Shown here: positions 2,281 to 50,348 of the stretch, in pieces
Numbering within the stretch: position 1 is the stretch's first letter
Layout of the letters: each line of letters begins with the position of its first letter
NCBI GenBank assembly: GCA_963751595.1
Contig: CAVVVC010000001.1
Coordinates: 875,741 to 939,740, forward strand
Direction: 5' to 3'
Length of the DNA stretch: 64,000 nt
Source: an uncultured Gammaproteobacteria bacterium
GTDB lineage: Bacteria; Pseudomonadota; Gammaproteobacteria; Pseudomonadales; JAHEGP01
Made by a program: the position numbers and the translations under genes
The notes under the pieces: model-generated
Told to the model about the DNA's origin: nothing
Seen by the model: the letters and a program-made list of their open reading frames with translations, nothing else
The model's database searches: none

Positions 2281-2283
2281 CTA

Positions 2284-2679: not shown

Positions 2680-2690
2680 ACGAAAACCCT

Positions 2691-24614: not shown

Positions 24615-25607
24615 CTAATCCAACGGGCTTTTAACGCCGCGCCCGCCCTTGTTCAGCACATGGGTATAGATTTCCGTTGTTGCGATATCGCTGTGGCCCA
24701 ACAATTCCTGAATGGTTCTCAGGTCGTAACCGTTTTCCAGCAGTCGCGTGGCGAAACTGTGGCGAAAGGTATGACAACTGGCGTGCTTGGCAATTCCAGA
24801 AGCCCTGATGGCATGGCGTACCCGCTTTTGCACGGCAGACGGATGAATGTGATGGCGCCGAAGCACCCCGGTGCCCGACTCGGCACCGGGCCGTGAAGCC
24901 GGAAAAAGAAAAGCCCATGCCAGAGACCGGGCAGCATGGGGAGATTTGCGCGCCAGCGCATGGGGCATCCAAACCTCGCCCCAGCCCATTTGCAGGTCGT
25001 ATTCGTGCAGTATGCGCACTGCCGTCACCTGCCGTTGCAGTGGCTCCAGCAGTGACACGGGCAACAACGTTACCCGGTCGCGATTGCCCTTACCCTGGCG
25101 CACGGTCAATTCCTGCATACCGAAATCGACATCTTTTACCCGTAGGCGGCAACACTCCATCAGGCGCAAACCCGACCCGTACAACAAACGGACCATGAGC
25201 CCGGCCATCTCCCCCTCGATAAGTTCAATGACCCGCAGCGCCTCGGCATGGGTAAAAACCACCGGGGGCCGCTTTCGATACCGGGGGCGAACATAGCTGA
25301 GGGCGCCGAACTCGACGCCAAGAAACTGGCGGTAAAGAAACACCAGCGCATTCAGCGCAATGCCCTGGGTAGCAGGAGAAACACGCCGGTGGGTAGCCAG
25401 CCAACTCAGGTAGCGATCGACGTCGTCTGCACCCAGATTCCCGGGATGTGTCTTTCGGTGAAAGCGAATGTAGTCGTAAATCCAGTGCAGGTAGGTTTTT
25501 TCCGTCGCATAGGCCAACTGCTTCGAGCGCATGAATTGGCGTAGCTGTTCAGACAGCCGCACCGGTGTGGATGCAACGGGCACAGGAATATCGCCCATAA
25601 TTATCAT
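24615..25607 (-). CDS. intI: Integron integrase IntI (tyrosine recombinase)
   Basis: Start chosen at ATG 25607 (GGAAGGA upstream). R-H-R-Y patches (GLRLMEC; HTFRHSFATRLL; LGHSDIATTEIYTHV). The integron-specific insertion HALARKSPHAARSLAWAFLFPA is present. A divergent cassette array follows. Confidence 0.9.
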   Translation of the reverse strand: MIIMGDIPVPVASTPVRLSEQLRQFMRSKQLAYATEKTYLHWIYDYIRFHRKTHPGNLGADDVDRYLSWLATHRRVSPATQGIALNALVFLYRQFLGVEFGALSYVRPRYRKRPPVVFTHAEALRVIELIEGEMAGLMVRLLYGSGLRLMECCRLRVKDVDFGMQELTVRQGKGNRDRVTLLPVSLLEPLQRQVTAVRILHEYDLQMGWGEVWMPHALARKSPHAARSLAWAFLFPASRPGAESGTGVLRRHHIHPSAVQKRVRHAIRASGIAKHASCHTFRHSFATRLLENGYDLRTIQELLGHSDIATTEIYTHVLNKGGRGVKSPLD

Positions 25608-25629
25608 CTCGTTTGTCCTTCCCTGGAGC

Positions 25630-25664
25630 ATGTACATATATACAGTATTGGCGAGTTTAGTCAA
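25630..25664 (-). promoter_or_regulatory. Putative PintI promoter with overlapping LexA (SOS) box
   Basis: Minus strand reads TTGACT-N16/17-TATATA about 25 nt upstream of the intI ATG. CTGTATATATGTACAT (25630-25645) matches CTGT-N8-ACAG at all but one core position. Confidence 0.5.
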
Positions 25665-25859
25665 CCCGTTCACGAGCCATCGCGGTGTATGTCGGCGGTG
25701 GTGGTGATAAACGATTGAAATGGAGAAGGTTTTCACCATGGTTAAAACAGGCGGAGGGAACAACAACAATGGCCACCGCTCTCTTCGACAGAAAACAGAA
25801 TATTCCCCTAATACGTAGGGCTTTGATAGTATTGGAGATTTACGAGGATGGCGTGAAAA

Positions 25860-25920
25860 CGATGACAACATACACGGCAAAAAGCTTATATCGCTTTGGC
25901 CACATATTCAGCTGTTACAG
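25860..25920 (+). other. attI region with crossover core GTTACAG (25914-25920)
   Basis: First GTTRRRY core after intI. The heptamer is the exact reverse complement of the R'' box (CTGTAAC) of cassette 1. The 5' extent of attI is not defined. Confidence 0.5.
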
Positions 25921-26218: not shown

Positions 26219-26510
26219 TTCGGGTCATCGGAAATTTGGAATATCGTAAACTCAGGGTAATGTATTACCGGTAAAGTATCAGGCCGGCATCAAGGAGAGC
26301 GCTAACTATGAACCCCCACCGTTCGTTCCTGGTGCCACCGCAGAGTAGGGCGCCACTCCAGGCTTTACCGCACTCGTCAACGGGTGCCAGTATTCGGCTC
26401 AAGCCTTCGCTTGCGCTCGGGCAACCTGGCACTGTTTTATATCAGCCAGCCGTACCTGTAACCAGGCAGGGCATAGGACGCGCAAACACCGCGCGCCCAT
26501 GCCTGCGGCG
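26213..26510 (+). repeat. ORF-less cassette family, copy 2 (298 bp, includes attC2)
   Basis: Tandem to copy 1. The core from GGCCGGCATCAAGGAG onward differs at only about 3-4 positions. Confidence 0.8.
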
Positions 26511-26531: not shown

Positions 26532-26948
26532 GTGGAGTATTTGTACATAGTAGGTACTTTCATTGCCTTCATCGTTGTGGGCGCTATTTTTCGTCATAGG
26601 AAAATGAGTCGAATCGCTTTGGAAAGAGGTGATTCGAATATTTGTGAATTTGCGCGCTCGTTCAATTATCGAAAAATTGATACAAAGATCATCCGAGAAG
26701 TGTGGAATGAGGTACAGGAAGCCTTGGGAAGCTATCACGGTAAAAAGTTTCCAGTTAAAGCCGATGACCTTTTCGTAAAAACATATAACCTTGATCCTGA
26801 TGACTTAGATGAGGCGTATTGGGCTATCGCGGATAAGCTTGGTATTAGCACTGATGAGCCTGAAAATAACCCATATTGGAATAAAGTTAATTCCGTAGAA
26901 GATTTGGTCAAATTCTTACATCATCAGCCTAGGGTAGAAAATGCATAA
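26532..26948 (+). CDS. Cassette 3: hypothetical N-terminally membrane-anchored protein
   Basis: 138 aa. GTG start with AAGGAAGAAGA just upstream, one TM helix (YLYIVGTFIAFIVVGAIF). AT-rich, no recognised domain. Confidence 0.55.
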   Translation: MEYLYIVGTFIAFIVVGAIFRHRKMSRIALERGDSNICEFARSFNYRKIDTKIIREVWNEVQEALGSYHGKKFPVKADDLFVKTYNLDPDDLDEAYWAIADKLGISTDEPENNPYWNKVNSVEDLVKFLHHQPRVENA

Positions 26949-27068
26949 CAAGCTCAGCCAGCATCGCCCCTACGGGGCTGGACCTCCGTTCCGGTGTTTA
27001 TTTGTGTTGTACGCTTACGCTAACACAAAACACACCTCCACTCCGGCCGCTGCTGCAGGGCGTTAGGT
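26943..27068 (+). other. attC3
   Basis: R'' GCATAAC (overlaps the stop of the 26532 ORF) ... R' GTTAGGT, 126 bp. Confidence 0.7.
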
Positions 27069-27097
27069 GCTGGGCATTCCTCGTTTGGAGTTCAAAT

Positions 27098-27829
27098 ATG
27101 CAAATTTTCTTGTCGTATGCCTCTGAGGATCGCTCGCTCGCCGAAGAGATACAGCTTGCATTGATCGGAGCCGGACACGCCGTATTCTTTGATAAAGCAA
27201 GTTTGCCCGCTGGGGGAGATTATCATTCAAGGATTGAGGCAGCCGTAAAGCGATGCGACTTGTTTGTTTTTCTAATCAGTCCCAACTCAGTCGCTTCAGG
27301 AAGCTACGCCCTCACAGAGCTGAAGTTCGCTCGTTCAAATTGGCATCACCCTAAAGAAAGGGTATTGCCGGTCCGGCTGCATAGTACAGCGTGGGAGGTA
27401 ATACCACCCTACCTAAAATCAGTCACAGTTCTTGAGCCTGAGGGCAACATTCCAGCAGAGATTCTCGGTGCTGTTTCAACAATAGCTATTAGCGATGCCA
27501 TTGGTGAAGCATCGGAATCGAAAGAAACAACGATCCCTGCTAGTAGTACACACGAAAGCGGTTCACGTGAAAACGGGAATCATGCAGTTCAGATCTGGAT
27601 TGCGATTATCGGGCTTGTTAGTGCATTGGGAGTGGCGTTGATTGCGAATTGGAGTTCTATATTTCTTCCCGGACCTTCCAGCTCAAGCTCTGTTGCTCAA
27701 GGCATGAAGGGCCCAGATACCGGTAGCTCACAATCTCAGACCCTAAACGAGTGCCCTGAGACGACCGAGTATGACTACTCAAAGGTTCCACCAGAGTCAC
27801 GAATTGTTAAGCGATGCCCCCCTCAATAA
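27098..27829 (+). CDS. Cassette 4 gene 1: TIR-domain protein with C-terminal transmembrane helix
   Basis: ATG 27098 with TGGAG upstream. TIR-like N-terminus MQIFLSYASEDRSLAEEIQLALIGAGHAVFFDK...DLFVFLISPNSVASGSYALTELKFA. TM helix VQIWIAIIGLVSALGVALIANWSSIFL, then a Ser-rich tail. Confidence 0.7.
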   Translation: MQIFLSYASEDRSLAEEIQLALIGAGHAVFFDKASLPAGGDYHSRIEAAVKRCDLFVFLISPNSVASGSYALTELKFARSNWHHPKERVLPVRLHSTAWEVIPPYLKSVTVLEPEGNIPAEILGAVSTIAISDAIGEASESKETTIPASSTHESGSRENGNHAVQIWIAIIGLVSALGVALIANWSSIFLPGPSSSSSVAQGMKGPDTGSSQSQTLNECPETTEYDYSKVPPESRIVKRCPPQ

Positions 27830-28284: not shown

Positions 28285-28362
28285 ACCTAACAAGGCCAAG
28301 CAGCATCGCGCACTGCGTGCGCTGGACCTCGCTACGCTCGGCCGCTGTTGTAGGCGTTAGCA
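28285..28362 (+). other. attC4
   Basis: R'' ACCTAAC ... R' GTTAGCA, 78 bp. R'' is the exact complement of the cassette-4 start GTTAGGT. Confidence 0.8.
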
Positions 28363-29036: not shown

Positions 29037-29141
29037 TGCTAACAAGTTGCTCCACTCGGACTCCGTAAGTCGTCGCGGTTTTTGCGGAAAGTCAGCAAAA
29101 ACACTCGCCAACTTACTCCGCCGGTGAGCAAGGCGTTATAT
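29037..29141 (+). other. attC5
   Basis: R'' TGCTAAC ... R' GTTATAT, 105 bp. R'' complements the cassette-5 start GTTAGCA. Confidence 0.8.
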
Positions 29142-29181: not shown

Positions 29182-30866
29182 GTAACTACTCACCCCCTCC
29201 ATCAAAAAAAGCTTGACAGGTTTTTCGCCGCATCCTTTTCGTAAATCCAGATGGCTGCCAAATACGCAGCGTGTAGCGGCACAGTGCCGGCATAAGCATT
29301 GATCTTCATGGTTACGAAAAAGCACTAGTCGAGACCATTATTCTTGCTCCTGCGCCTTCCTGAGTTGCCGAAAAAACCCATGATATATTGCGTTATCGAC
29401 GCAATCGTATCGCAACGACATGGCCAGCATTAATACCTCCTCGGTTCGTGAAGAACTTGACCGGCTGAAAAACGAATTCAAGCGACTGTCTTCTGAGCAG
29501 AAGATTTCTGGTGAAATCACATTGCTGATGAGCAGTATGCTCACGCTGCTGGAACTGATTTGCGCGATCTTTCTGGAGAAGTCGACCACCAAAAATAGCC
29601 AGAACTCCAGCAAGCCCTCGTCTCAAACGGACAAGGATGAAACAGCACTGGGTCAGCCTGGCAGCAAGGCAAAAGGCAAGACGGAACGCCGGCAGTCCGC
29701 TTACAACACGCGCACCATCGAAACGACAAGCGTTGCAGTGGTAAGCACCTGCGATATCTGTGGTGAAGATCTCACCGGCACCGCCTGCCTTAAACATGAG
29801 CGGCGCACCAAAATCGATATCATTTTTGAGAAGACGGTCGAGCATGTGGATGCCGAGATCAAGCACTGCTCAGTCTGTTCTGCCGAGGTCAAAGGCCAGT
29901 TTCCTTCGGACATGCCCGGGCCGTTGCAATATGGCAATGGGTTGAAGGCCTACGTGATTAACATGCTGGTCTGCCAGATGGTCGCATTGAACCGGGTACA
30001 AAAAGCAGTGAGCGCGATGATCGGCCAGGTGATCTCCGAAGCGACCCTGCTCAAGTACGTCCTGCGACTCCACGAGGCGCTGGCCGACTGGGAGAAGGAT
30101 GCGATCAGGCAGCTATTGCAGAGCCCTGCGATGCACGTGGATGAGACGTCGTTGCGAGTTGATCAGAAAAATCACTGGATACATGTCTATGCAGCCGATG
30201 ACATCACCTTGAAACGACTGCATCGAAAACGGGGCAAGGAAGCGATAGAGGCGATTGATATCATTCCTCGATACGGCGGCGTGATCATCCATGATTGCTG
30301 GGCATCCTATTTATCCTATGCACATTGCGGACACGGTTTGTGCGGATCGCACCTGTTGCGTGAGCTGACGTTTATCGTCGAGTCCAATGGTTATATCTGG
30401 GCAAAAAATATGAAGCGCGCCCTGCAGGAAACCTGCAAGGCTGTTTCGGCAAGCCCTGACAAGTGTCTCCGCGATGACGCCTACGCGAACTTGCAAAAAC
30501 GCTATCGGGCTATTTTGACGCGCGGCGAGAAGGAACTTCCGGTGATACCGGACAGGCCGCAGGGAAAGCGCGGGAAAATGGCTAAGTCGGACGCACACAA
30601 CTTGTGGGAGCGACTCAAAGAGCACGAGCAAGCGGTATTATTGTTTGCCAAAGAGGGCCATGTGGCTTTCACCAACAACCGTGCCGAGCGGGATCTTCGA
30701 ATGTCGAAGGTCAAGCAGAAAGTATCCGGTTGTTTCAGAAACAGCCAATACGCTGACGCCTATTGTCGAATATCCAGTTACCTGCAGACCATGGCGAACA
30801 AGGGGCACAACCCGCTGATTGCCATTCAGATGGCACTGGCAGGGGAGATGGGGGGCGAGTAGTTAC
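29182..30866 (+). mobile_element. IS66-family insertion sequence, copy 1 (single-ORF, ISBst12-like group)
   Basis: 1685 bp. Terminal inverted repeats GTAACTACTCACCCCC / GGGGGCGAGTAGTTAC. Flanked by the 8-bp direct repeat ATATTTGT (29174-29181 and 30867-30874). Confidence 0.85.
29420..30862 (+). CDS. IS66-family transposase
   Basis: 480 aa with N-terminal coiled coil, zinc-finger-like CDICG...CSVC, and DDE region DETSLRVDQKNHWIHVY...IIHDCWASY. No tnpA or tnpB accessory ORFs. Confidence 0.85.
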   Translation: MASINTSSVREELDRLKNEFKRLSSEQKISGEITLLMSSMLTLLELICAIFLEKSTTKNSQNSSKPSSQTDKDETALGQPGSKAKGKTERRQSAYNTRTIETTSVAVVSTCDICGEDLTGTACLKHERRTKIDIIFEKTVEHVDAEIKHCSVCSAEVKGQFPSDMPGPLQYGNGLKAYVINMLVCQMVALNRVQKAVSAMIGQVISEATLLKYVLRLHEALADWEKDAIRQLLQSPAMHVDETSLRVDQKNHWIHVYAADDITLKRLHRKRGKEAIEAIDIIPRYGGVIIHDCWASYLSYAHCGHGLCGSHLLRELTFIVESNGYIWAKNMKRALQETCKAVSASPDKCLRDDAYANLQKRYRAILTRGEKELPVIPDRPQGKRGKMAKSDAHNLWERLKEHEQAVLLFAKEGHVAFTNNRAERDLRMSKVKQKVSGCFRNSQYADAYCRISSYLQTMANKGHNPLIAIQMALAGEMGGE

Positions 30867-32133: not shown

Positions 32134-32426
32134 TGGCTATGCACAACCCTCCTCATCCAGGTGAGTTTATCCAGGCGACCTACATGGAGCCGTTTGGCCT
32201 TAGCTGCCGTTATTTGGCGGAGCAGCTCGATGTAGCCGCATCTACGCTTAATCGGGTCCTGAAAAAGCAAAGCGGCATTAGCCCCGAGATGGCACTGCGT
32301 CTCTCCAAGGCATTGGGCCGCAGCCCTGAAAGTTGGCTGACCATGCAGGATGCATATGATCTCTTCCAAGCTAGAAAAGGAGTCAAACTTAATCGCGTCC
32401 AAAAGGTCAGTCTTGATGCCGCGTAA
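32133..32426 (+). CDS. higA: Cassette 8: HigA-family antitoxin (HTH)
   Basis: 97 aa. HPGEFIQATYMEPFGLSCRYLAEQLDVAASTLNRVLKKQSGISPEMALRLSKALG. The ATG overlaps the higB stop. Confidence 0.8.
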   Translation: MAMHNPPHPGEFIQATYMEPFGLSCRYLAEQLDVAASTLNRVLKKQSGISPEMALRLSKALGRSPESWLTMQDAYDLFQARKGVKLNRVQKVSLDAA

Positions 32427-32480
32427 CAAGTACAAGCAGGCGGACTGGCCTACCGCCAGCCGCTGTTGTAGGCGTTAGGG
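32421..32480 (+). other. attC8
   Basis: R'' GCGTAAC (overlaps the higA stop) ... R' GTTAGGG, 60 bp. R'' complements the cassette-8 start GTTACGC. Confidence 0.8.
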
Positions 32481-32805: not shown

Positions 32806-33028
32806 AGATTTCGACAAAAAGTTCGATCAGGGCAAGGAAGACATAATTGAAGACCTGGAGCTTTCCAGCCTTAAGCGGCCGAACCAGACACCGCGAAGAG
32901 TTAACGTGGATTTTCCTGAATGGATGATCGTATCTCTAGACAAAGAGGCGGCAAGATTAGGTGTTACTCGACAGTCCATCATCAAAGTCTGGCTGGCAGA
33001 ACGCCTTGAACACGCCCCTAACAAGTAA
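32795..33028 (+). CDS. brnA: Cassette 9: BrnA-like antitoxin (RHH/CopG type)
   Basis: 77 aa, overlaps brnT by 11 nt. RVNVDFPEWMIVSLDKEAARLGVTRQSIIKVWLAERL is an RHH fold. Confidence 0.7.
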   Translation: MKAKDFDKKFDQGKEDIIEDLELSSLKRPNQTPRRVNVDFPEWMIVSLDKEAARLGVTRQSIIKVWLAERLEHAPNK

Positions 33029-33070
33029 AGGCTGCCGACGGTTTCACCGGCGCAGCTTTAAGCGTTAATT
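33016..33070 (+). other. attC9
   Basis: R'' CCCTAAC ... R' GTTAATT, 55 bp. R'' complements the cassette-9 start GTTAGGG. Confidence 0.8.
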
Positions 33071-33366: not shown

Positions 33367-33616
33367 GATTACCTTTAAGAAATCTGTTGCCAAAGACTTA
33401 CGGAGCATCCCTCCAGCAGACGTTAAACGTATTTTGCAAAGAATCGAAATACTTGCAGAGAACCCAAGAGGGGAAGGGTGCGTCAAATTATCAGCCGAGG
33501 AACGGTATAGGGTGCGCCAAGGAGTTTACCGTGTTGTCTATGAAATCCGTGATGAATCTCTCGTTGTACTGGTGGTAAAAGTTGCTCACCGATCAGTCGT
33601 TTACAAGGGCAATTAA
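33353..33616 (+). CDS. relE: Cassette 10: RelE/ParE-family toxin
   Basis: 87 aa, overlaps the antitoxin by 14 nt. FKKSVAKDLRSIP...YRVRQGVYRVVYEIRDESLVVLVVKVAHR is the RelE/StbE pattern. Confidence 0.75.
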   Translation: MAKFRITFKKSVAKDLRSIPPADVKRILQRIEILAENPRGEGCVKLSAEERYRVRQGVYRVVYEIRDESLVVLVVKVAHRSVVYKGN

Positions 33617-33667
33617 CAGGGCCATGTTGCGGACAACTTTCAGTCGCCGCAAATGGCGGCGTTAGGC
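33611..33667 (+). other. attC10
   Basis: R'' AATTAAC (overlaps the relE stop) ... R' GTTAGGC, 57 bp. R'' complements the cassette-10 start GTTAATT. Confidence 0.8.
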
Positions 33668-33766: not shown

Positions 33767-35480
33767 AGAGCCTGCTCATAAACTTGCCAGCAGTGCATTT
33801 TCCAGCGCCAGGCGCCGCCACTGCTCCACCCACGCCCGCCATTGCTCAACGCAAGTTTTGACGCGGTTCGGGAGCCCGTGCTCTCCTCCAGCCCTGGTCT
33901 TTCTCCAGAGCCAATAAAACACCTCCAACAGGATCAACAGGTTCATCACCAGAAAGATGCTGTTGATCCACGCCCTGGACGTATCGGATCGCTTCGCCCG
34001 GATGTAGTTGAGTCGGTAGCCGTTCTTGCCCTGACCGAACTTGCCCTCAATCGGAATCCGCTGCAGATACGCTTCGCGTCGCATGGCTGCCAGCCGTTTC
34101 AGCGCCCCCTGGTTTTCCTCGGTCACTTTCTTCGGCCTGCCCAGGGGCTTTCCTGCAAAACGGATGCCGCGGTCTTTGAGGTATCGACGGTTGTCAGTCC
34201 CGGCTACCGTAAAGCGTGTCGCCCAGAACCACTGCAGGATAAACACCATGATGCTCCCGATAGGCCTCGACTTGTGAGGGCAAGTCATGGCCTTCATGGA
34301 AAGCATCCCACCGCAGGTGATCGACTCGCGCCACACCGTCACCGGTGAGGCTGACACTGAGCTTGGCACCGAACTCCGTCGGCTTGTCCACTTTGCCGCG
34401 GACAATCGGCCGCACGTACGGCTGGCTGATGCTCACGATGCGATCATCGCAACGTCTGGTCTTGCTGTGGTACATCGCCCACTGTTGAGCAAACACATGC
34501 TGGATCACCCAGTACCGGTGCAACAACCAGCGTGGCAAGGGTAATGGCCTATAAGCCGGAAAGTGCGTTAACAGCTGCTCAATGTGGCCCAGGTTGCGGC
34601 GCAGGTACTGCAGCTGTTGCTTGATGCCACGGCGTATCAACTTTGCGCCCGGGCGCTTCTTCTTCACGATGGCGAGGTAGGCCTTGCGCGCTTTGTGCCG
34701 GTAGGTCCGGGGCTTATGCGTCAGCCCTGCCTTGGCATAGAGCCGGTCGATGATCTGTTCGCTGAACTCCCTGGCCTCATTCAGCAGGCTAAGGTCTGTC
34801 GGGAAGCGGATCGCCTGTGGTGCAACGGTGGCATCGAGGATCAGCTTTCCCTGATGCGTCGCTTCTTCTGCGGTAGGCGCCGGCTCGCCAGCCGAGCCCC
34901 CCGGTGGCGGGTTATCGTCGTTCTCCGCCGGTGTTTGCCGCTTTGCCACCCCCTTCTTCGCTTTGTCTTGCTCCACAGCCTCAATGACCGCCTCATAAAA
35001 AACATCAAACACGGATTGCCCCATACGCTTGCGGATCTCGACAAACAGCGACGGGACGAAAGGGGCTTCCATCTGATAACCGGGCAAGCCGACGAAGTAT
35101 TGGAGATAGGGGTTTTCCTGAATCTGTGCCACGGTCTCCCGGTCGGAGAGGCTCAGCTTGTGCTTGATAATCACAGCACCAATGACCAGGCGGGCATCTT
35201 TGGTCGGCCGCCCCTGTGTGCTGGAAAGGCCTTCGTAATAGGCCTCGGCCAGCGCGTCCCAGGGAATGCACTGACTCATCTTAATCCAGCGGTTGTTTTC
35301 ATCCAGCGCGGTCTGGAAGGGCCAATCAAACTCTGCCAGGGAGAGCTGACGATGACTCTGTGTTCGGATCATGGGTGCACGCTTTTTAAAGGCGGGGGCT
35401 TGTTTTTCGTGCACCATTGTACCCCTGAAACGAGCAAATACCTATATGAATCAATGTTTTAAGGTTTATGAGCAGGCTCT
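33767..35480 (-). mobile_element. IS1182-like (IS5-related) insertion sequence
   Basis: 1714 bp with perfect 17-bp terminal inverted repeats AGAGCCTGCTCATAAAC. Flanked by the 4-bp direct repeat ATTT (33763-33766 and 35481-35484). Confidence 0.8.
33776..35372 (-). pseudogene. IS1182/IS5-type DDE transposase, frameshifted
   Basis: The N-terminal ORF (MIRTQSHRQLSLAEFDWPF...GDTLYGSRD*) stops at 34194. The sequence continues in another frame as DNRRYLKDRGIRFAGKPLGRPKK.... The junction reads GGTAGCCGGGACTGACAACCG. Confidence 0.7.
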
Positions 35481-36502
35481 ATTTATTGGCTCTTCTTCCG
35501 AAGGGCTAGAAGTTGCCCGGCAAGTACAGGTTACCCTCGATGATCAGGACATACAGGTTGTTGTTTGGGATCAGGGTGTGTTTGAGCCCGGAAAGTCGTA
35601 CTTATCCGCTCTGTTAGAGGCGACTGAGAGTTTCGATTTTGCGGTGCTGGTACTCTCTTCAGACGACGCCATAGTCTCTCGCGGTACAGAATACGATGCC
35701 CCACGCGATAATGCGTTGATCGAGCTAGGCCTGTTCCTAGGCTCTATAGGTAGAGATCGAACGTTTTTCTTGTATGATAAAAATAGTCCACCGAAAATGG
35801 CTTCGGATTTGGCCGGTATTTGCGGCGTTACGTACTTTGGTAATGCAGAAAATATACGTGCAGCAGTTGGAAGCGCGTGTACGATTATCCGCGAAAGAAT
35901 TCACAAGTTAGGAGCCATCCCTCATGAGTCATCATTTAAAATAATTAATGACCCAAAGATATTATGCGTAGGTGGGGAGCGACTTTCCGATCTGGGCTTT
36001 GCAAAAGACTATGAAATTCTACGGAAATTGTTCAATCATGTGGAAGGGGAGAGCCAAGCAACAAGTCATTGGTTGCGAAAAAAGCTTTTTCAGGAGCAGT
36101 TCGATTTGATTCACGTTTGTGCCACGGTAGATCCGAATACAGGAGATTTAGTTCTATCCCAGGATGATCGTATGGCTCCTAGTGCTTTTGGTGCAGCTGT
36201 AAAGAGATCTGAAACAAATTTGGTCGTCCTTGCAGGTTGTAACTCGGTTCAACTTGCAGAGCACGTCGCTCGAGTTACCAACATGGTCGCAGCGACACGT
36301 ACCGCTGCTATCAATGTGTTCGTGGAATGGGAAGTGATATTTTACCTGTTGCTCAGCAAGGGTGAGCTACTATCGAAAGTGCACGATGAAGCTAAGGCAG
36401 CAACAGGCGCCCCGGTTATTTTATTGCCAAAGAATGACGTTGCGTTCCAAAGTATTGGTTCTACCACATGATTAAATTCTTGTGTTTTGTCTGTGCGTAC
36501 TC

Positions 36503-36583
36503 GCATAACAAAGCCGTAAACTCGGACGCATTTTTCGTTCGCTTCGCTCTCTACAAATGCGCCGGTTACGGCCGGCGTTAGGC
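36503..36583 (+). other. attC11
   Basis: R'' GCATAAC ... R' GTTAGGC, 81 bp. One mismatch to the complement of the cassette-11 start. Confidence 0.7.
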
Positions 36584-36596: not shown

Positions 36597-37385
36597 ATGA
36601 AGATCAGACACTTTCTTTACAATTCATTCCTCATAGAGAGTGTCAGTAACAGAATCGCAATTGACCCGGGACAGTACTTCTCCATTTTTAGCTTTACTAG
36701 TCTGATTCCAAAATCAGATTGGAAAAGTATCACGCATATTTTGATTACCCATGGTGATCCTGACCATCACTGGCAATCTGATCGTGTAGCAGAAGTAAGC
36801 AATGCACCAGTTGTATGTGGAAAAGATTTAGCAAAAGTCGAAGGTGGCAAGACACTACTAGTCGATCCCCGAGGCAAAGAGCTGACATCCTGGGTACCGT
36901 TTAATAATGCGCATCCTTTAGACTTTGGAGAGTCAATCATTTTAGGTGATGTAGAAATTGAAGCAGTCAAGTCGGTCCATGGTCCTATCAGAGTTCCAGT
37001 TCTGTGGTTCAAGATGGAAAAGCACCCAGGGCCGGGCGAACGAGTTGGCATTGGTTCTGTTGGGTTCAAAATAAAGCTAGATGGTAAAACTATTGTGAAC
37101 CTGGGAGATTCGATTTTACAAAAAGAATGGACGGGATTAGAACCGGATGTACTGATGCTTCCTATTGGTGGATTGGGTGATAATACGTGGACTATGGATG
37201 TATCTGATGCACTTGAAGCTGTTAAACTGATAGCGCCAAAAATGGTAATTCCGTGCCACTATAACGTTCCATTTTTGTGGATCAAAAATATCGCCCCTGC
37301 AGATGATCAATTGTTTAAGCGTGAGGTAGAGGGGCTAGGTATTGAATGCCACATCATGCGGCGCGGTAGTGAGATTGAAATATAA
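36597..37385 (+). CDS. Cassette 12: MBL-fold metallo-hydrolase
   Basis: 262 aa with metal motif HILITHGDPDHH and later SVHG, NLGDS, PCHYN. Resembles the UPF0173/YtkL-type MBL fold. Confidence 0.7.
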   Translation: MKIRHFLYNSFLIESVSNRIAIDPGQYFSIFSFTSLIPKSDWKSITHILITHGDPDHHWQSDRVAEVSNAPVVCGKDLAKVEGGKTLLVDPRGKELTSWVPFNNAHPLDFGESIILGDVEIEAVKSVHGPIRVPVLWFKMEKHPGPGERVGIGSVGFKIKLDGKTIVNLGDSILQKEWTGLEPDVLMLPIGGLGDNTWTMDVSDALEAVKLIAPKMVIPCHYNVPFLWIKNIAPADDQLFKREVEGLGIECHIMRRGSEIEI

Positions 37386-37386: not shown

Positions 37387-37439
37387 GCCTAACGAATAAG
37401 GATAAGTCGCGCTTGCCGCGCCTTATCCTATTGTTGAAC
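37387..37439 (+). other. attC12
   Basis: R'' GCCTAAC ... R' GTTGAAC, 53 bp. Stem GAATAAGGATAAG/CTTATCCTATT. Confidence 0.75.
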
Positions 37440-37639
37440 GAGCCCGGTCGAGTCGCTTCTCTCTATAGTAAATAAATCAATTGGCGTTGTAGGACTGAGC
37501 GCCGATTGGAGTCGGCGCTATTCTCATTGGGCGAGCAAAGCCCTCACCTGGCAGGGTGATAATCGGTAGACGTCGCTATCGCATAGTGTGCGGTGGCTCC
37601 CTTTGAGTGCGTGACCGGCAGAGTGCTGAGTGCTGCGAG

Positions 37640-38686
37640 CTATCCGGACATAAGTTTCTGCCTGTTGAACCCAACCACCACCATCGGTGACTGGCATCGT
37701 TGGCACAAAAATGACGGTCTTTGAGTTGCTTTGACTAACGGTAGCGGGACCTGCAGTAGCCACTGCACGCGTTGCAATAGTCGCTTGGCGTTGCCATGCA
37801 AGAACCCATAGTCACGTGAGCGCCGGAAGCCTTTGGGTAAGGTGTGTTGTAACACCAGCGCTAGAAAATCCTCGCCGCGCATGCGGCGTGTTTTCCTCGT
37901 TTGGGTTTCGCTGTCCTGGTACGCGAAGGTCACGTAGTTGCCATCGTCATTAAGAATCTGCGAGTTGCTTATCACACCGCGATAGAGATACCGGGACAGG
38001 TATTGCAGGGCCGGTAGTCCATGCCCTACACGCTCACAGTGCACCACCCACTTCTTTGGAGTTTTGGGGACAGTCAGCCCAGCCTGTTGCAGGGCAGAGA
38101 GCAGCATGCCCCGGAATACCGTCGCCAGCTGAAAGCCGTTAAAGAGGTACTTGTCTTTCAGTTTGCGCCATTCGTTACGCCGCGTGTTCACTCCGCCACC
38201 GGGTACGATGATATGCACATGCGGGTGGTAGTCCAGCCGCCGGGTGTGGGTGTGTAATATCGCTGTCATGGCCAGCTCGGCGGCGAGACCTTTATCGTTC
38301 AGGCCAAACGTTTTTAGCGTTGCTACCGCACACTGAAACAGCAGCGAGTACACAGCTTTCTGGTTGGCTTTAGCCAGGGAGCGCAATTCGAAAGGGAGGG
38401 TGAACGTGACCATGAAATACTCGACCGGCAACAGCTTGCAGGCTTGCCGTTCCAGCCACTGCGTCGTGCAGTGGTTCTGGCAGCGGTTGCAGCTGCGGTG
38501 GCCGCACGATCGGTGGTGGGTGCTGCGCCAGGGGCAGGCCTTACAGGCTAATTGCAGCTCACCATACTGCTCGGTTCGACAGCCCATAATCGCATTGAGA
38601 GCCGACCATTGGTCTGGCATCGTGCTGGCACTGTGACTCGCTTTAAATCGGTCAAGATATCGGCATGCAATGCTGGCAACGTCCAT
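37640..38686 (-). CDS. IS91-family transposase (zinc-binding N-terminus + Y2 HUH domain)
   Basis: Start at ATG 38686. Cys-rich CKACPWRSTHHRSCGHRSCNRCQ, HUH-like HTHTRRLDYHPHVHIIVPGGG, and YLSRYLYRGVISN carrying the paired tyrosines. Confidence 0.8.
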   Translation of the reverse strand: MDVASIACRYLDRFKASHSASTMPDQWSALNAIMGCRTEQYGELQLACKACPWRSTHHRSCGHRSCNRCQNHCTTQWLERQACKLLPVEYFMVTFTLPFELRSLAKANQKAVYSLLFQCAVATLKTFGLNDKGLAAELAMTAILHTHTRRLDYHPHVHIIVPGGGVNTRRNEWRKLKDKYLFNGFQLATVFRGMLLSALQQAGLTVPKTPKKWVVHCERVGHGLPALQYLSRYLYRGVISNSQILNDDGNYVTFAYQDSETQTRKTRRMRGEDFLALVLQHTLPKGFRRSRDYGFLHGNAKRLLQRVQWLLQVPLPLVKATQRPSFLCQRCQSPMVVVGFNRQKLMSG

Positions 38687-38687
38687 G

Positions 38688-39593
38688 CTACGCCTCCCCA
38701 TCAAGTGAGAGGTTCAGTCGATTAACCAGCTTATTGATGAGCGTGTGCGTATTCTGCTGCGTGACCCCGGTTAACTGCGTGTAGAGGGCGGTGGTCTTCG
38801 GGCACTCGTGACCCATTTCGTGCTGAATGGCTCGCAAATTGACGCCGGCCTCCACCAGGTGAGCGCCATAGCTGTGACGTAGGCTGTGGATAGTGATGGG
38901 TTTGTGGATACCGCAGTCGCTGACAATGACCTTGACCGATTTCTGTAAACCGCCCCGGTCCATCGGGGACTTGGCTACGCGTCGCTCGACCGATGTTTTA
39001 CCCCCAGGAAACAGCAGCATCGGGTGGCGGTGCGTCACCCAGTACGCTCGCAAAGCGTGCAATGTGGCGTTGGGCAGAGTGACGAACCTGTCTTTCCGGC
39101 CTTTCCCCTGGCGTATGTGCACCTTCGCGCTTTCGCGATCGATATCGCCTACTCGCAGGTTCAAGGCTTCGCCAAGTCGCAGTCCCATGCTGTAGGCGGT
39201 AAGGATAAACGTTTGGTAGCGCAACTCCCGGGCGCCGTTAATCAGTCGCTCGACTTCCCTGAGTGTCAAAATATCCGGCAGCACTTTTTTTGTGGGCGGC
39301 TTGACGATATCGACCCAGGTCCATGTTTTGTTGAGCACGTGTTTGTAGAAGAACTGCAGGCCGTTGCGGTCGACTTTAACGGTGCTCCAGGAGTGGCTTT
39401 TAACCAGTGCGGTGAAGTAGTCTTTGAGTTGATCTTCCGTTAATCGATCGGGGCATTGATCAAAGAATTCTGTGATCCGGCGTACAGCTCTGGAATAGAC
39501 GTCGATCGTTGTAGCCGCCTTGCCTTGACGTTGCAATGCGCTAACATGGCGTTGGTACAGTGCGTTAAATTTGGTTTGCTGTGCTTTATTCAT
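38688..39593 (-). CDS. Tyrosine recombinase (phage-integrase family) coupled to the IS91 transposase
   Basis: Start at ATG 39593 (GAGGAG RBS). R/H-x-x-R/Y patches (MGLRLGEA; HSLRHSYGAHL; GHECPKTTALYTQ). The stop is 1 nt from the tnpA ATG. Confidence 0.8.
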   Translation of the reverse strand: MNKAQQTKFNALYQRHVSALQRQGKAATTIDVYSRAVRRITEFFDQCPDRLTEDQLKDYFTALVKSHSWSTVKVDRNGLQFFYKHVLNKTWTWVDIVKPPTKKVLPDILTLREVERLINGARELRYQTFILTAYSMGLRLGEALNLRVGDIDRESAKVHIRQGKGRKDRFVTLPNATLHALRAYWVTHRHPMLLFPGGKTSVERRVAKSPMDRGGLQKSVKVIVSDCGIHKPITIHSLRHSYGAHLVEAGVNLRAIQHEMGHECPKTTALYTQLTGVTQQNTHTLINKLVNRLNLSLDGEA

Positions 39594-39699
39594 GGGTAAC
39601 TCCTCGATGATCACACCCGCTATTGGGTTGTGTAGAGGAATTATCCTTCAGCGCTCAGGGAGAGCAGTGGTTGGTGCTATTCTGCCGCGTAGCGGCTTC

Positions 39700-39803
39700 G
39701 TTCAACAAGCGCATGCAGAGTTCCCCTGACAAAGCGAGGCATCGGACCGCTGGGACGCTGCTTTGCAGCTAAAACCCTGGCGGCCAATGCTGCGGCGTAA
39801 GGT
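39700..39803 (+). other. attC13 (R' with 1-nt deletion)
   Basis: R'' GTTCAAC is the exact complement of the cassette-13 start GTTGAAC. R' reads GTAAGGT (GTTAAGG minus one T), 104 bp. Confidence 0.65.
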
Positions 39804-39837: not shown

Positions 39838-40110
39838 ATGATAGAGTTCAGCTGGGAACAAACTAAAGTCCAAACCAACCTCAAGAAGCATGGTGTTTGT
39901 TTCGAGGGGGTCCGATCTGTCCTCTACGATGAATTTGCAGTTCAATGTTATGGTGCCGAGTCTTCTGAGGAGGACAGGTTTATTCTTCTTGGTCTAAGCA
40001 ATTTGCCTCGAGTACTGGTCGTTGTGCACTGCGAGCGAGGATGTCATCGAATATTTTTAGCGGATGGCAGAAAAATCCGGTGTTCACTATTAAAGTTTGA
40101 TCAATCGTAA
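39838..40110 (+). pseudogene. Cassette 14: degenerate BrnT-like toxin remnant, 3' end truncated by IS66-family copy 2
   Basis: MIEFSWEQTKVQTNLKKHGVCFEGVRSVLYDEF...RFILLGLSNLPRVLVVVHCER matches BrnT, but the C-terminus diverges (possible frameshift near 40040). The reading frame runs into the IS. No antitoxin partner remains. Confidence 0.5.
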
Positions 40111-41791
40111 CTACTCACCCCTCCATCAAAAAAAGCTTGACAGGTTTTTTCGCCGCATCCTTTTCGTAAATCCAGATGGCAGCCAAATGCGCAGCGTGTA
40201 GCGGCACAGTGCCGGCATAAGCATTGATCTTCATGGTTACGAAAAAGCACTAGTCGAGACCATTTTTCTTGCTCCTGCGCCTTCCTGAGTTGCCGAAAAA
40301 ACCCATGATATATTGCGTTATCGACGCAATCGTACCGCAACGAAATGGCCAGCATTAATACCTCCTCGGTTCGTGAAGAACTTGACCGGCTGAAAAACGA
40401 ATTCAAGCGACTGTCTTCTGAACAGAAGATTTCTGGTGAAATCACATTGCTGATGAGCAGTATGCTCACGCTGCTGGAACTGATTTGCGCGATCTTTCTG
40501 GAGAAGTCGACCACTAAAAATAGCCAGAACTCCAGCAAGCCCTCGTCTCAAACGGACAAGGATGAAACAGCACTGGGTCAGCCTGGTAGCAAGGCAAAAG
40601 GCAAGACGGAACGCCGGCAGTCCGCTTACAACACGCGCACCATCGAAGCGACAAGCGTTGCAGTGGTGAGCACCTGCGATATCTGTGGTGAAGATCTCAC
40701 CGGCACCGCCTGCCTTAAACATGAGCGGCGCACCAAAATCGATATCATTTTTGAGAAGACGGTCGAGCATGTGGATGCCGAGATCAAGCACTGCTCAGTC
40801 TGTTCTGCCGAGGTCAAAGGCCAGTTTCCTTCGGACATGCCCGGGCCGTTGCAATATGGCAATGGGTTGAAGGCCTACGTGATTAACCTGCTGGTCTGCC
40901 AGATGGTCGCATTGAACCGGGTACAAAAAGCAGTGAGCGCGATGATCGGCCAGGTGATCTCCGAAGCGACCCTGCTCAAGTACGTCCTGCGACTCCACGA
41001 GGCGCTGGCCGACTGGGAGAAGGATGCGATCAGGCAGCTATTGCAGAGCCCTGCGATGCACGTGGATGAGACGTCGTTGCGAGTTGATCAGAAAAATCAC
41101 TGGATACATGTCTATGCAGCCGATGACATCACCTTGAAACGACTGCATCGAAAACGGGGCAAGGAAGCGATAGAGGCGATTGATATCATTCCTCGATACG
41201 GCGGCGTGATCATCCATGATTGCTGGGCATCCTATTTATCCTATGCACATTGCGGACACGGTTTGTGCGGATCGCACCTGTTGCGTGAGCTGACGTTTAT
41301 CGTCGAGTCCAATGGTTATATCTGGGCAAAAAATATGAAGCGCGCCCTGCAGGAAACCTGCAAGGCTGTTTCGGCAAGCCCTGACAAGTGTCTCCGCGAT
41401 GACGCCTACGCGAACTTGCAGAAACGCTATCGGGCTATTTTGACGCGCGGCGAGAAGGAACTTCCGGCGATACCGGACAGGCCGCAGGGAAAGCGCGGGA
41501 AAATGGCTAAGTCGGACGCACACAACTTGTGGGAGCGACTCAAAGAGCACGAGCAAGCGGTATTATTGTTTGCCAAAGAGGGCCATGTGGCTTTCACCAA
41601 CAACCGTGCCGAGCGGGATCTTCGAATGTCGAAGGTCAAGCAGAAAGTATCCGGTTGTTTCAGAAACAGCCAATACGCTGACGCCTATTGTCGAATATCC
41701 AGTTACCTGCAGACCATGGCGAACAAGGGGCACAACCCGCTGATTGCCATTCAGATGGCACTGGCAGGGGAGATAGGGGGCGAGTAGTTAC
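40107..41791 (+). mobile_element. IS66-family insertion sequence, copy 2
   Basis: 1685 bp, near-identical to copy 1 with the same terminal repeats. Flanked by the 8-bp direct repeat GATCAATC (40099-40106 and 41792-41799). Confidence 0.85.
40345..41787 (+). CDS. IS66-family transposase (copy 2)
   Basis: 480 aa, four amino-acid differences from copy 1 (T/A, M/L, V/A, M/I). Confidence 0.85.
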   Translation: MASINTSSVREELDRLKNEFKRLSSEQKISGEITLLMSSMLTLLELICAIFLEKSTTKNSQNSSKPSSQTDKDETALGQPGSKAKGKTERRQSAYNTRTIEATSVAVVSTCDICGEDLTGTACLKHERRTKIDIIFEKTVEHVDAEIKHCSVCSAEVKGQFPSDMPGPLQYGNGLKAYVINLLVCQMVALNRVQKAVSAMIGQVISEATLLKYVLRLHEALADWEKDAIRQLLQSPAMHVDETSLRVDQKNHWIHVYAADDITLKRLHRKRGKEAIEAIDIIPRYGGVIIHDCWASYLSYAHCGHGLCGSHLLRELTFIVESNGYIWAKNMKRALQETCKAVSASPDKCLRDDAYANLQKRYRAILTRGEKELPAIPDRPQGKRGKMAKSDAHNLWERLKEHEQAVLLFAKEGHVAFTNNRAERDLRMSKVKQKVSGCFRNSQYADAYCRISSYLQTMANKGHNPLIAIQMALAGEIGGE

Positions 41792-43409: not shown

Positions 43410-43444
43410 TTTCTTTGCCTTGAGAGCAAACTCACGGGGATACG

Positions 43445-43496
43445 AGTTAACAAGGGCATGCAGACGACTTCGGCAATCGCTATGCGCTTGTGAGGT
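43445..43496 (+). other. attC15 (non-canonical R')
   Basis: R'' AGTTAAC ... R' GTGAGGT, 52 bp. The arms GAGTTAACAAGGGCATGC and GCTATGCGCTTGTGAGGTC are complementary. Confidence 0.6.
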
Positions 43497-43728
43497 CGGC
43501 ATCAAGGAGAGAACTAGCTATACCCCCCCATCGTTCGTTCCTGGTGCCACCGCAGAGTAGGGCGCCACTCCAGGCTTTACCGCACTCGTCAACGGGTGCC
43601 AGTATTCGGCTCAAGCCTTCGCTGGCGCTACGGCAACCTGGCAGGGTTTTTTATCAGCCTGCCGTCCCTGTAACCAGGCAGGGCATAGAGCGCGCAAAAA
43701 CAGCGCGCCCATGCCTGCGGCGCCAAGT
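43491..43728 (+). repeat. ORF-less cassette family, copy 3 (5'-truncated, includes degenerate attC16)
   Basis: Starts at GGTCGGCATCAAGGAG. A roughly 105-nt block is identical to copy 2. The ATG of the spurious ORF reads ATA here. Confidence 0.75.
43668..43728 (+). other. attC16 (degenerate R', probable end of array)
   Basis: R'' CTGTAAC ... R' GCCAAGT. Otherwise homologous to attC1 and attC2. Confidence 0.6.
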
Positions 43729-49008: not shown

Positions 49009-49980
49009 TCAACGTTTACCGGTAATGATATCCAGGCCGTGCAGGGTGGTGTGCAACAGGCGATTCTTTGTTCCCGCGACAAGCCGAACCAGCGCACGGG
49101 GCAGCAGGCTTTTTGCCGGTTCCCAGTGCACCTCGTCCCCAACATTGACCGTGCCGGGTGCTGCCACAGTGGCGTTGATGCCCAGGTGCAGGTTGGTGTG
49201 CCGCTTCAGGGCGCGAATCACCTTGCCGTCTTTTGGTATACCGCCATACTGGGGCTGGCCAGGGGCTGAGCAGCGCACGGTACGGGTGGCACACTTGATC
49301 ACGCAGTTGCCCGCATGCAGGTAGCCATCCACCCAGCCGAAATCGTCAAACTCCGGCGCCGGGTGGGCACTGGCAATCACTATGTTGGGCCGAAACCGCT
49401 GCACGATGAAATCTCCCGCCGGTTCAACGGCGGCCATTGCCGCCAACGCGTTCGTGCTGAGCAGGTGCAGTTGAAACACATCCTGGTAGCGACCCGGCGG
49501 CGTGGCGAAAAAAGACAACTGGGTGGCCAGCGCCATCGGCACCGAAGACAGGTCGGGGAGGGTGCGGGTGCCGAACTGCCGCATCATATCCCGCGCTCCG
49601 CCCAACTCTGCCAACCGGTAGTGGCGCCAGTTCGATGCCGGTTGCAGCGGCCACAGGCTGACCGGTTTGCCCAGGTGCTCTGACAGCAGAGTGGCGCACT
49701 CCGGGTCACTGCTGCTGACCTCACGCCCATCCGGCAGGGTGATGATTACCCGGGGTATCCCGTCACCCCCGGGTGCCGCGGCATACCGGGCGGCGCATTG
49801 CAGCAAGCGTGGATTTTTTCGCACGACCGTGATTTCGCCCCGGGTTTCATCCCGCACTGCCCACTGACGATCACCTGTCACCCCCTGAGCCGTCAAGCCG
49901 GTGCGGGCGATGCTTTCACCCACCATGGATTTAACGGGATAGCGCCACAATTCCTTAACAGCACCTACGGGATCAGTCAT
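49009..49980 (-). CDS. MOSC-domain protein (N-terminal beta-barrel + MOSC)
   Basis: Start chosen at ATG 49980 (MTDPVGAVKELWRYPVKSMVGES). C-terminal CSAPGQPQYGGIPKDGKVIRAL carries the conserved Cys. Confidence 0.75.
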   Translation of the reverse strand: MTDPVGAVKELWRYPVKSMVGESIARTGLTAQGVTGDRQWAVRDETRGEITVVRKNPRLLQCAARYAAAPGGDGIPRVIITLPDGREVSSSDPECATLLSEHLGKPVSLWPLQPASNWRHYRLAELGGARDMMRQFGTRTLPDLSSVPMALATQLSFFATPPGRYQDVFQLHLLSTNALAAMAAVEPAGDFIVQRFRPNIVIASAHPAPEFDDFGWVDGYLHAGNCVIKCATRTVRCSAPGQPQYGGIPKDGKVIRALKRHTNLHLGINATVAAPGTVNVGDEVHWEPAKSLLPRALVRLVAGTKNRLLHTTLHGLDIITGKR

Positions 49981-50348
49981 GGTTTTTTCATTATGCGTTG
50001 GTCTTGTGGCGGGCAGTGTAGCAAAGAGCGCCTGATGGCTGTTACTTCTGATGCAGAACTGCACGGGTGAAAGCAAGCGAAAACCCTGAAAACACCGGGG
50101 TGGCGAGGATGCGAATTTTGAGCTTGGCTGAAAATATGCGTATTATCCGGGAAACAGGGGGCAGACCGCGGCCAGGGGTTTTGTTGGGACGCTCCCGCTC
50201 TTTTAGATTCGCAGAGTGCCGGCACAAAGGACCTGCTGTATACATCAGTGCAAAAGTGTGGCTATTTTGCACCGGCTCGGCGGGCTGTTACGTACTTGCC
50301 CTGCGGAATAATGAAACCGGCATATTGTGAGTGCGTGGCGCAGCAAGC

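Follow-up and report, generated by a model that had tools for sequence, protein, structure and literature searches.

An IS91-family element with a coupled tyrosine recombinase gene in the attC site of an integron cassette

A unit of an integron array that obeys the formal rules of a gene cassette, and that consists almost wholly of two transposition genes, raises the question of what moved into the array and by which reaction. Such a unit lies in a 64,000-nt stretch of DNA from an uncultured gammaproteobacterium (Pseudomonadales, JAHEGP01; assembly GCA_963751595.1, contig CAVVVC010000001.1, positions 875,741 to 939,740 of the forward strand), hereafter called the window, where a minus-strand gene for a tyrosine recombinase is followed by one for an IS91-family transposase. 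A first-pass annotation made from the sequence alone had taken 37433-39803 as the mobile unit. The evidence below leaves us highly confident that the mobile unit is instead an intact two-gene IS91-family element at 37393..39705, inserted antisense in the R'' box (GCCTAA/C; slashes within sequences mark element boundaries or cut positions) of the attC site of a metallo-β-lactamase (MBL)-fold cassette.

Ends and anatomy of the element

Relatives were collected by scanning a one-genome-per-species collection and metagenome contigs with the transposase, which yielded 122 loci with transposase identities from 99% down to 29%, in Gamma-, Beta- and Deltaproteobacteria and in Bacteroidota. The ends were mapped by aligning the DNA downstream of the transposase stop codon and upstream of the recombinase start codon. 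Read in the orientation of the element, conservation begins at YTTG/TTGRACGAAGCCGC-TAC-GCGGC and ends at ...CCTTATTYG/TTA. The left-end TTGRACGAAGCCGC was invariant in 64 distinct copies, and TTGAAC is also the terminus in the Bacteroidota relatives. As GTT is common to both junctions, ends at 37391..39703 are equally possible.

The short hairpin at 37387-37439, called attC12 in the first-pass annotation and assigned there to the preceding cassette, was present in all 18 of the genome relatives, at a constant distance downstream of the transposase gene, and in about 80-90 copies overall. Conserved in this way in each relative examined, the hairpin is an end of the element itself. Metagenome contigs often broke at the ends mapped in this way: 11 of 71 started no more than 30 nt before the left end, and 6 of 82 stopped no more than 14 nt after the right one, as expected of a repeat. 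A Logan contig 100% identical to the window spans 37390-39651 and stops three bases past the right end. An identical copy came from an independent data set (L042), and the right flank of a 99% identical relative (L043) differed from that of the window over the 7 nt available. The first-pass annotation would have counted as refuted had other copies ended well inside 37440-39699, with unrelated cassette DNA beyond their ends and no GAAC/GTTC bias; the outcome was the reverse, since other copies place one end outside that interval, at 37393, so that attC12 is taken in, and the other at 39705.

In three contigs (L008, L080 and L118) the right end is joined directly to the left end of the element. 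One of them, L008 (2453 nt), has a 141-nt exact terminal overlap that makes it a circular permutation of one 2312-nt element; its source in the metagenome is a free circle or else a tandem dimer. In L118, a 578-nt nonautonomous derivative (1-618) stands head to tail before a full copy; the two have in common only 29 nt at the left end and 67 nt at the hairpin end, the interior of the derivative is unrelated DNA, and the derivative abuts an inverted copy of the hairpin. Solo or partly duplicated hairpins also stand beside full elements in L007 (4580-4645), L063 (~2745) and L074 (~2321), one of these extra copies being inverted and about 140 nt away, which suggests recombination between hairpins.

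The structure of the hairpin was examined by covariation in 38 distinct joined-end sequences, each made of the right and left ends of the same copy, with a 28-pair structure scored. Overall, 94.2% of the cells were paired, and 9 of the 28 bp had changed on both sides (55 cells); none of 500 shuffles reached these values, and controls with slid alignments were 33-44% paired. Two of the pairs span the end-to-end junction, 10-70 (UA in 28 sequences, CG in 8) and 5-76 (CG in 37, AU in 1), and connect the internal heptamer and the outer stem with the opposite end, at a distance of 2.3 kb. The covariation across the junction thus indicates a functional coupling of the ends, which may pair in a circle or tandem junction or may serve as inverted binding sites. 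The possibility that the hairpin is a terminator or RNA structure was considered and rejected on account of the same two pairs, which join ends 2.3 kb apart. The joined-end junction folds at -43 and -46 kcal/mol on its two strands.

This shows that the attC-like hairpin distal to the transposase gene belongs to the element and that the other end pairs with its internal heptamer once the ends are joined. The hairpin is 53 nt long, carries RYYYAAC and GTTRRRY boxes and bulges, has a paired spacer and travels conserved with the element; more distant relatives have stems of entirely different sequence (GGATAAGATCGTG..., GGTTAGATTTTG...). The heptamers reported earlier, GTTGAAC at 37433-37439 and its exact complement GTTCAAC at 39700-39706, are indeed present, and the coupling of the two element ends explains their complementarity; their conservation and covariation in more than 35 independent copies are far beyond chance. 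Their GAAC and GTTC had been read as IS91 target tetranucleotides flanking the element. They are internal to it, one in the R-box-like repeat and the other in the terminus.

Both gene identifications of the first-pass annotation were confirmed. The transposase open reading frame (ORF; 348 aa from the start at 38686, 353 aa from that at 38701) matched Y2_Tnp (PF04986, 1.4e-43), Zn_Tnp_IS91 (PF14319, 9e-22) and the NCBIfam model transpos_IS91 (NF033538, 354 bits; cut-off 125). Aligned to TnpA of IS91, at 23% identity, it keeps HPHVH (HUH) and YLSRY (the tyrosine pair), and so has the zinc-binding N terminus, the HUH motif and the two catalytic tyrosines of the IS91 family. An exact look-up of the longer ORF returned no match. 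The recombinase has as its nearest solved relative VchIntIA, the integron integrase of Vibrio (2a3v, 3.9e-29), with Xer proteins next. It scored 153.6 bits, in two stretches, on the IntI model TIGR02249 (cut-off 265), and it fell under the cut-offs of XerA (154 bits; 220), XerD (142; 330) and XerC (121; 335). In a BLASTP alignment with the IntI of the window, 42 gap positions in total fell mostly at extra IntI residues, and the additional domain inserted in IntI is absent. By these comparisons the recombinase belongs to the Xer/IntI neighbourhood and to none of the XerC, XerD, XerA or IntI families. Catalytic motifs are kept in both proteins, and the window copy of the element appears intact. 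Neither protein has the DEDD transposase domain of the IS110 family, which places the element outside the IS1111-attC group. The translational coupling held as well: the recombinase stop codon TAG (38690-38688) is followed by C and then by the transposase ATG at 38686, leaving a 1-nt gap, and a separate gene call on an identical contig (59-964 and 966-2012) agrees. The alternative ATG at 38701 would overlap the recombinase gene by 14 nt. Almost all relatives, down to 30% identity, have a recombinase gene ahead of the transposase gene, and Bacteroidota relatives at 31% identity share the design of the window element.

The anatomy is close to that of IS91, IS801 and IS1294, relatives of the ISCR elements. 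The transposase gene of IS91 has terIS upstream of it and oriIS downstream; the 5'-CTTG/GTTC target adjoins oriIS on the antisense strand, and insertion is achieved only by the single-stranded circle of that antisense ("bottom") strand (PMC13181058; PMC13393415). The IS91 copy used for comparison starts with T/CGAGTAGGC, followed by a palindrome, and ends with ...GGGGATTTAAATTCCTATCGAT/CAAG. Like this group, the element has two unlike ends, each with palindromes in subterminal position, lacks long terminal inverted repeats, makes no target duplication, carries a terIS-like palindrome upstream and an oriIS-like block downstream of the zinc-finger, HUH and two-tyrosine transposase gene, and forms circle or tandem junctions with abutted ends. 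The block GATTTATTTACTATAGAGAG matches 13 of 19 positions of the IS91 terminus ...GATTTAAATTCCTATCGAT/CAAG. IS91 also has an upstream, translationally coupled ORF; in the element this is a tyrosine recombinase and not Orf121. The transposase is only 23-27% identical to those of IS91 and IS1294-like elements. Beyond the oriIS-like block, the element has an extra 65-90 nt formed by a variable spacer and the attC-like hairpin, and its target is an attC core with an extended motif, not CTTG/GTTC beside oriIS: it is YYAA that precedes the ori-side hairpin end on the antisense strand. From its sequence, the element looks like an IS91 core extended by a recombination module, with the recombinase gene in place of orf121.

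The invaded attC site and the orientation of insertion

The array around the element is confirmed as a real integron, with an intI gene and canonical attC sites on the plus strand. Its attC sites follow the pattern xxTAAC-AAG...GGC-GTTAxx, and their detection required a relaxed scan of the window for AAC...GTT hairpins; scans that demanded complementary R'' and R' boxes, together with an inverted-repeat search, returned almost nothing useful in the window. The site that precedes the MBL-fold cassette gene is at 36503-36583. Excision of the element in silico joins GCCTAA to CAAGCGCATGCAG...GCTGCGGCGTAAGGT and restores a 104-nt site that starts with xxTAAC-AAG, ends with GGC-GT(A)Axx, resembles the other attC sites of the array and folds into one long hairpin, at -36.8 kcal/mol on the top and -41.3 kcal/mol on the bottom strand. 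As joining the flanks gives an attC of the array type, we conclude that the element split the attC of the MBL-fold cassette in its ORF-proximal core, and did not replace almost the whole of a cassette, as one of the earlier proposals had it. What had been named attC13 is host attC from 39706 to 39803; its first six bases, 39700-39705, are the element terminus, and the site is therefore a hybrid. Two such hybrid sites, attC-like and in direct order, remain after insertion; they give the region the appearance of a cassette and make its compliance with the cassette rule a side effect. The distal core of the invaded site, R' at 39797-39803, reads GTAAGGT and not GTTRRRY, the conserved GTT being missing; IntI has thus probably lost the ability to excise the MBL cassette here, whether or not the element is included.

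The targets of the relatives were compared in a logo of 61 distinct left and 74 distinct right flanks, which reads TTGAnnGnYTTG on the left of the element and TTA(G/T)(G/A)Y (TTAKRY) on the right. Among the 40 loci with enough flank, 26 have joined flanks that close an AAC:GTT hairpin resembling a textbook attC. A loose energy criterion (E<=-16) was not discriminating, because 98 of 400 control GTT sites (24.5%) also passed it, and a global arm-alignment score for rebuilt sites was rejected as poorly calibrated. Strict two-box attC architecture was found in 12 of the 40 rebuilt sites versus 19 of 962 control GTT sites, a 15-fold enrichment. A Marinilabiliaceae genome has paralogous attC repeats without an insertion, and these read ...GCGGCTTG/TTGTGC precisely over the point of insertion. 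The specific relation to attC cores that had been proposed, linking rolling-circle elements to integron sites, is thus supported. No target-site duplication was seen: only GTT is shared by both junctions, and the joined flanks give intact attC sites. In the Bacteroidota copies, the G of the target is kept at the left junction and the A of the element at the right one, which puts the exchange point 3' of that base and inside G^T^T, the position used by IntI.

Four indicators bear on orientation. The right flank usually begins with TTA, the complement of a TAA stop codon, and 33 of 56 loci have an antisense ORF of 40 aa or more that stops at the junction. In element orientation, the rebuilt attC sites have their bulged bases on the 3' arm at 15 loci, against 2 loci with bulges on the 5' arm, in agreement with the bottom-strand reading of the window's own attC sites. 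Rebuilt sites set in array orientation all have TAAC-AAR at the cut end and GGC-GTTA at the far end. Finally, the side on which intI lies and its strand, both taken with respect to the element, agree among the window, L012 and L057. As these indicators agree, the sense strand of the element corresponds to the bottom strand of the array, the element is antisense to the cassettes, and the insertion is in R''. A cassette inserted by IntI would lie at G/TT of R', in the orientation of the array; the insertion seen here is at TAA/C of R'', on the top strand, and antisense. The host IntI in its normal mode is excluded, because a canonical bottom-strand event at R' would put the hairpin at the other end of the element.

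Table 1. Positions in the window of the element, its parts and the invaded array
Feature	Position	Strand	Basis or remark
Whole mobile element, 2313 bp	37393..39705	-	Conservation limits in relatives
IS91-family HUH/Y2 transposase gene	37640..38701 (start 38686 or 38701)	-	Domain matches and IS91 alignment
Xer/IntI-like tyrosine recombinase gene	38688..39593	-	301 aa; Phage_int_SAM_4 and Phage_integrase
Terminal attC-like hairpin of the element	37393-37439	-	Compensatory changes in 38 distinct copies
Internal R-box-like heptamer (GTTCAAC, element orientation) and outer-stem half CGGGCTC	37433..37446	-	
Conserved block GATTTATTTACTATAGAGAG, resembling the IS91 oriIS terminus	37459..37478	-	Kept in relatives
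Subterminal palindrome 2, AGCGCCGA...TCGGCGCT	37498..37519	-	Sequence varies, palindrome kept in relatives
Subterminal palindrome 1, TCACCCTGCCAGGTGA, then conserved GGTGAGG...GCTCGCC	37544..37559	-	Compensatory stem changes
Left (terIS-like) end: TTGAAC (39705-39700), GAA, palindrome GCCGC-TAC-GCGGC	39684..39705	-	
Joined-end junction of the window element, ...CCTTATTCG-TTGAACGAAGCC...			
Host attC, left fragment GCCTAA	37387-37392		Remnant of the MBL cassette attC
Host attC, right-hand remainder, C AAGCGCATGCAG ... GCTGCGGC GTAAGGT	39706..39803	+	MBL-fold cassette attC
Expected uninterrupted host joint, element removed, ...ATATAATGCCTAACAAGCGCATGCAGAG...			
MBL-fold cassette gene (attC invaded)	36597..37385	+	Pfam Lactamase_B_3 / Lactamase_B_2
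Integron integrase gene (intI) of the host array	24615..25880	-	TIGR02249, 398 bits (cut-off 265)
Canonical attC sites, examples	26943-27068, 28285-28362, 29037-29141, 32421-32480, 33016-33070, 33611-33667, 36503-36583	+	

Proposed route of insertion and its alternatives

The explanation that accounts best for these observations as a whole, and that we regard as probable, is an IS91 element that invades attC sites and whose insertion would be mediated by its own recombinase. Three traits, namely the recombinase gene, the joined-end hairpin and a G^T^T crossover in the attC core, were found together in every member examined, from 99% to about 30% identity. Because they co-occur from Gammaproteobacteria to Bacteroidota, the recombinase most likely performs the insertion.

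For the steps of the reaction, we put forward a route in which we have about as much confidence as doubt. By analogy with IS91, the HUH transposase would make a single-stranded circle of the strand antisense to its genes. The joined ends in this circle would fold into a hairpin that mimics attC, and the recombinase of the element would exchange one strand, 5'-GTTCAA/C of the hairpin with 5'-RYMTAA/C of the folded top strand of a host attC. That strand is the one left unused by IntI and would lie on the lagging strand's template within large chromosomal integrons, in which the attC bottom strands are on the leading-strand template (PMC5371416). The choice of the exchanged strand would follow from the usual polarity of these enzymes, with the binding arm 5' of the cut, which would designate the antisense strand of the element, the strand that is circularised in IS91. 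Replication would then resolve the product, as for integron cassettes and the CTX phage, and the outcome would be orientation-specific, duplication-free insertion into attC sites. The head-to-tail and circular junctions seen in assemblies are those that rolling-circle transposition would be expected to give, again by analogy.

The CTX phage of Vibrio cholerae served as the working analogy. Its HUH Rep protein RstA yields single-stranded DNA in which the folded attP hairpin mimics the chromosomal recombination site; XerCD exchanges one strand, replication completes the event, and tandem copies matter for production. The proposed route would likewise combine a rolling-circle HUH protein with Xer-type recombination of a folded single strand. 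It differs in that the phage relies on host recombinases and the dif site, whereas the element brings its own recombinase gene and has attC as its target, and the steps are proposals.

Several points weigh against this explanation. The mechanism is inferred by comparing sequences. The junctions fit HUH cleavage after YYAA/ at both ends equally well, and since the oriIS-like block lies about 65 nt inside the hairpin end, the nick site of the transposase may not coincide with the end of the element. The counts of wobble pairs, 27 versus 24, do not tell apart which strand folds, and the covariation of the heptamers could instead reflect one protein that binds inverted repeats. The hairpin proposed as a recombinase substrate has its extra bases on the cleaved arm, unlike the substrates of IntI, and the recombinase itself is under every curated IntI and Xer cut-off and without the IntI insertion. 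On the target side, 14 of the 40 joined flanks had no obvious attC, and the logo may partly reflect the attC family of the hosts and not a preference of the element. For the window locus, an exact look-up of the MBL protein found no record and thus gave no empty site.

An alternative that we consider possible but rather doubtful is that the HUH/Y2 transposase carries out both excision and insertion, its specificity having shifted to ...YYAA/ at the bases of hairpins, which would make the top strands of attC sites natural single-stranded targets. The recombinase might then be accessory, serving in Xer-like resolution of head-to-tail multimers, for which the tandem copies are possible substrates, or acting as a regulator in the manner of Orf121, since the upstream coupled ORF of IS91 is a regulator (PMC13181058). 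The transposase is intact and conserved, and the terIS-like palindrome and the oriIS-like block are retained. Moreover, YYAA precedes both cleavage positions on the antisense strand (CTAA, ATAA or CCAA in the target, TCAA or CCAA at the element end), and the target tetranucleotide of IS801 and IS1294 is likewise the cleavage site at terIS (PMC13181058). A transposase acting alone leaves unexplained why attC targeting, an attC-like hairpin and a recombinase gene go together in every member of the subgroup examined, when the descriptions of IS91, IS801 and IS1294 include no recombinase gene and give plain tetranucleotides as targets (PMC13181058). The target motif here far exceeds a tetranucleotide, and the crossover, at the position used by IntI, falls within a paired stem that resembles an R box and not in single-stranded DNA beside the hairpin. 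We nevertheless keep this alternative at its present weight, because identical junctions would arise if both ends were cut after YYAA.

It is highly improbable that an ordinary IS91-type insertion at GAAC/GTTC (or CTTG) fell in an attC core by chance, with no specificity for attC structure. The left flank is usually YTTG, like the 5'-CTTG target of IS91 (PMC13181058), and the lack of a target duplication is a property of the IS91 family as a whole. However, YTTG adjoins the terIS-like end on the sense strand, whereas the tetranucleotide of IS91 adjoins oriIS on the antisense strand (PMC13181058), and GAAC and GTTC both lie inside the element. Chance would also account poorly for a target logo of at least 18 nt, for a fixed orientation relative to the cassettes and for the enrichment of strict attC architecture over control GTT sites.

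Slightly less probable still is the reading in which 37387-37439 is the attC of the MBL cassette and 37433-39803 a gene cassette moved by the host IntI: the unit does formally start after G/TTGAAC and end in an attC-like site, and IntI could in principle excise the inserted unit where the downstream R' is intact, but R' here lacks the conserved GTT, the short hairpin accompanies the element in all copies while the long attC opposite differs at every locus, TTGRAC follows the hairpin immediately at head-to-tail junctions, the genes lie in antisense orientation to the array, and a canonical IntI event would have placed the hairpin at the recombinase-gene end, downstream in the array, the opposite of what is observed. 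The earlier suggestion that the element is carried as an ordinary IntI cassette is abandoned on these grounds.

Related systems, surroundings and implications

Integron cassettes share with the element the RYYYAAC and GTTRRRY boxes of the hairpin, a G^T^T crossover and the absence of duplication; the best solved relative of its recombinase is an IntI, and attC-like sites alternate after insertion. They differ in that here the recombinase is encoded by the mobile unit, is under the IntI cut-off and has no IntI insertion, the crossover is in R'' (top-strand reading) and not R', the element is antisense to the array, and its hairpin has a paired spacer and extra bases on the cleaved arm. The IS1111-attC group of the IS110 family and the group IIC-attC introns invade the attC sites of cassettes in a fixed orientation, a specificity that the element shares. 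Their enzymes are unrelated (a DEDD transposase, and a ribozyme with a reverse transcriptase), and neither group has an attC mimic or a tyrosine recombinase. Both have been mentioned as attC invaders (PMC9229058).

The gene pair itself has been seen before. ISShvi3 stands next to an attC-like site in a Shewanella integron (PMC9229058), and ISWz1 copies flank resistance genes in integrative and conjugative elements of Weeksellaceae and give circular forms (PMC11322121, PMC10973501). ISWz1 and ISMno24 were annotated as "tandem transposase genes" around tet(X) (PMC11322121, PMC10973501). By their descriptions, these two-ORF IS91 elements have the same gene pair; their ends, the hairpin as part of the element and an attC target are not defined in those papers. 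An IS91 subgroup with a phage-integrase ORF is known from ISfinder and TnPedia. We found no description of an attC-targeting IS91 subgroup in the searchable literature, a search that did not extend to ISfinder entries, and the element looks like an unreported attC-targeting variant of the family.

Among the relatives, the Marinilabiliaceae genome carries at least 8 copies of the element. The locus from Syntrophobacteraceae (L012) holds, at 1194-3380, a second and distant recombinase-transposase pair (33-47% identity) whose own hairpin has the same design and a wholly different stem sequence. A 48%-identical copy lies on the conjugative plasmid pPHDD1 of Photobacterium damselae (80804-91727), beside a group II intron reverse transcriptase and a RelE/ParE pair, in a setting outside the chromosome that looks cassette-like; a search of plasmid DNA gave only weak matches to the recombinase gene. 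Another relative adjoins an IS110-like transposase gene, as judged by eye from the C-terminal sequence. Within the window, a 355-aa ORF at 49009..50076 was considered as a second copy of the element and rejected as unrelated.

The array is heavily colonised by insertion sequences. Two IS66-family copies, 98% identical, occupy 29181-~31700 and 40106-~42600 (transposase genes 29420..30862 and 40345..41787), the second abutting the 3' end of a BrnT-toxin ORF (39838..40110), where an antitoxin gene would be expected. Two further transposase genes, DDE_Tnp_1_2 (33776..34405) and a DUF772 transposase (34194..35417), are on the minus strand. Directly beside intI, a 298-nt unit is repeated in tandem (25914-26509), with a third copy of 76% identity 17 kb away (43424-43721); each unit bears an attC-like CTGTAACCAGGCAGGGC...GCGTTACAG, and the units resemble duplicated ORF-less cassettes. 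The cassettes 27002..27829 and 35371..36471 encode a TIR-domain and a CAP12/Pycsar-type TIR protein, a defence-like cargo.

One consequence concerns annotation. The hairpin resembles attC to a reader and apparently to integron software too (PMC9229058), and it creates false "IS cassettes" and misplaced cassette boundaries where an attC has in fact been interrupted. With each insertion, a cassette exchanges its attC for the hairpin of the element and two strong recombination partners are added, which could reshuffle or immobilise cassettes. Relatives of the element, ISWz1 and ISMno24, occur in multidrug-resistance regions around tet(X) and floR and form circles (PMC11322121), and the recombinase-hairpin module may explain how such regions are assembled. 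The geometry of insertion implies use of the attC strand that IntI ignores, which would make the exposure of single-stranded attC hairpins in chromosomal integrons testable.

Taken on its sequence, the element points to a little-known transposon family that specifically parasitises integrons. If so, a hybrid of an HUH and a tyrosine-recombinase element joins a very short list of attC-specific invaders. More tentatively, and with somewhat less than even confidence, it may represent an old and widespread lineage of IS91-derived "selfish cassettes" that would insert single-stranded circles with their own recombinase, in a mirror image of the IntI reaction. Were this true, it would form a third, mechanistically new class of attC parasites and might, in evolutionary terms, connect rolling-circle elements with attC sites and integron integrases.

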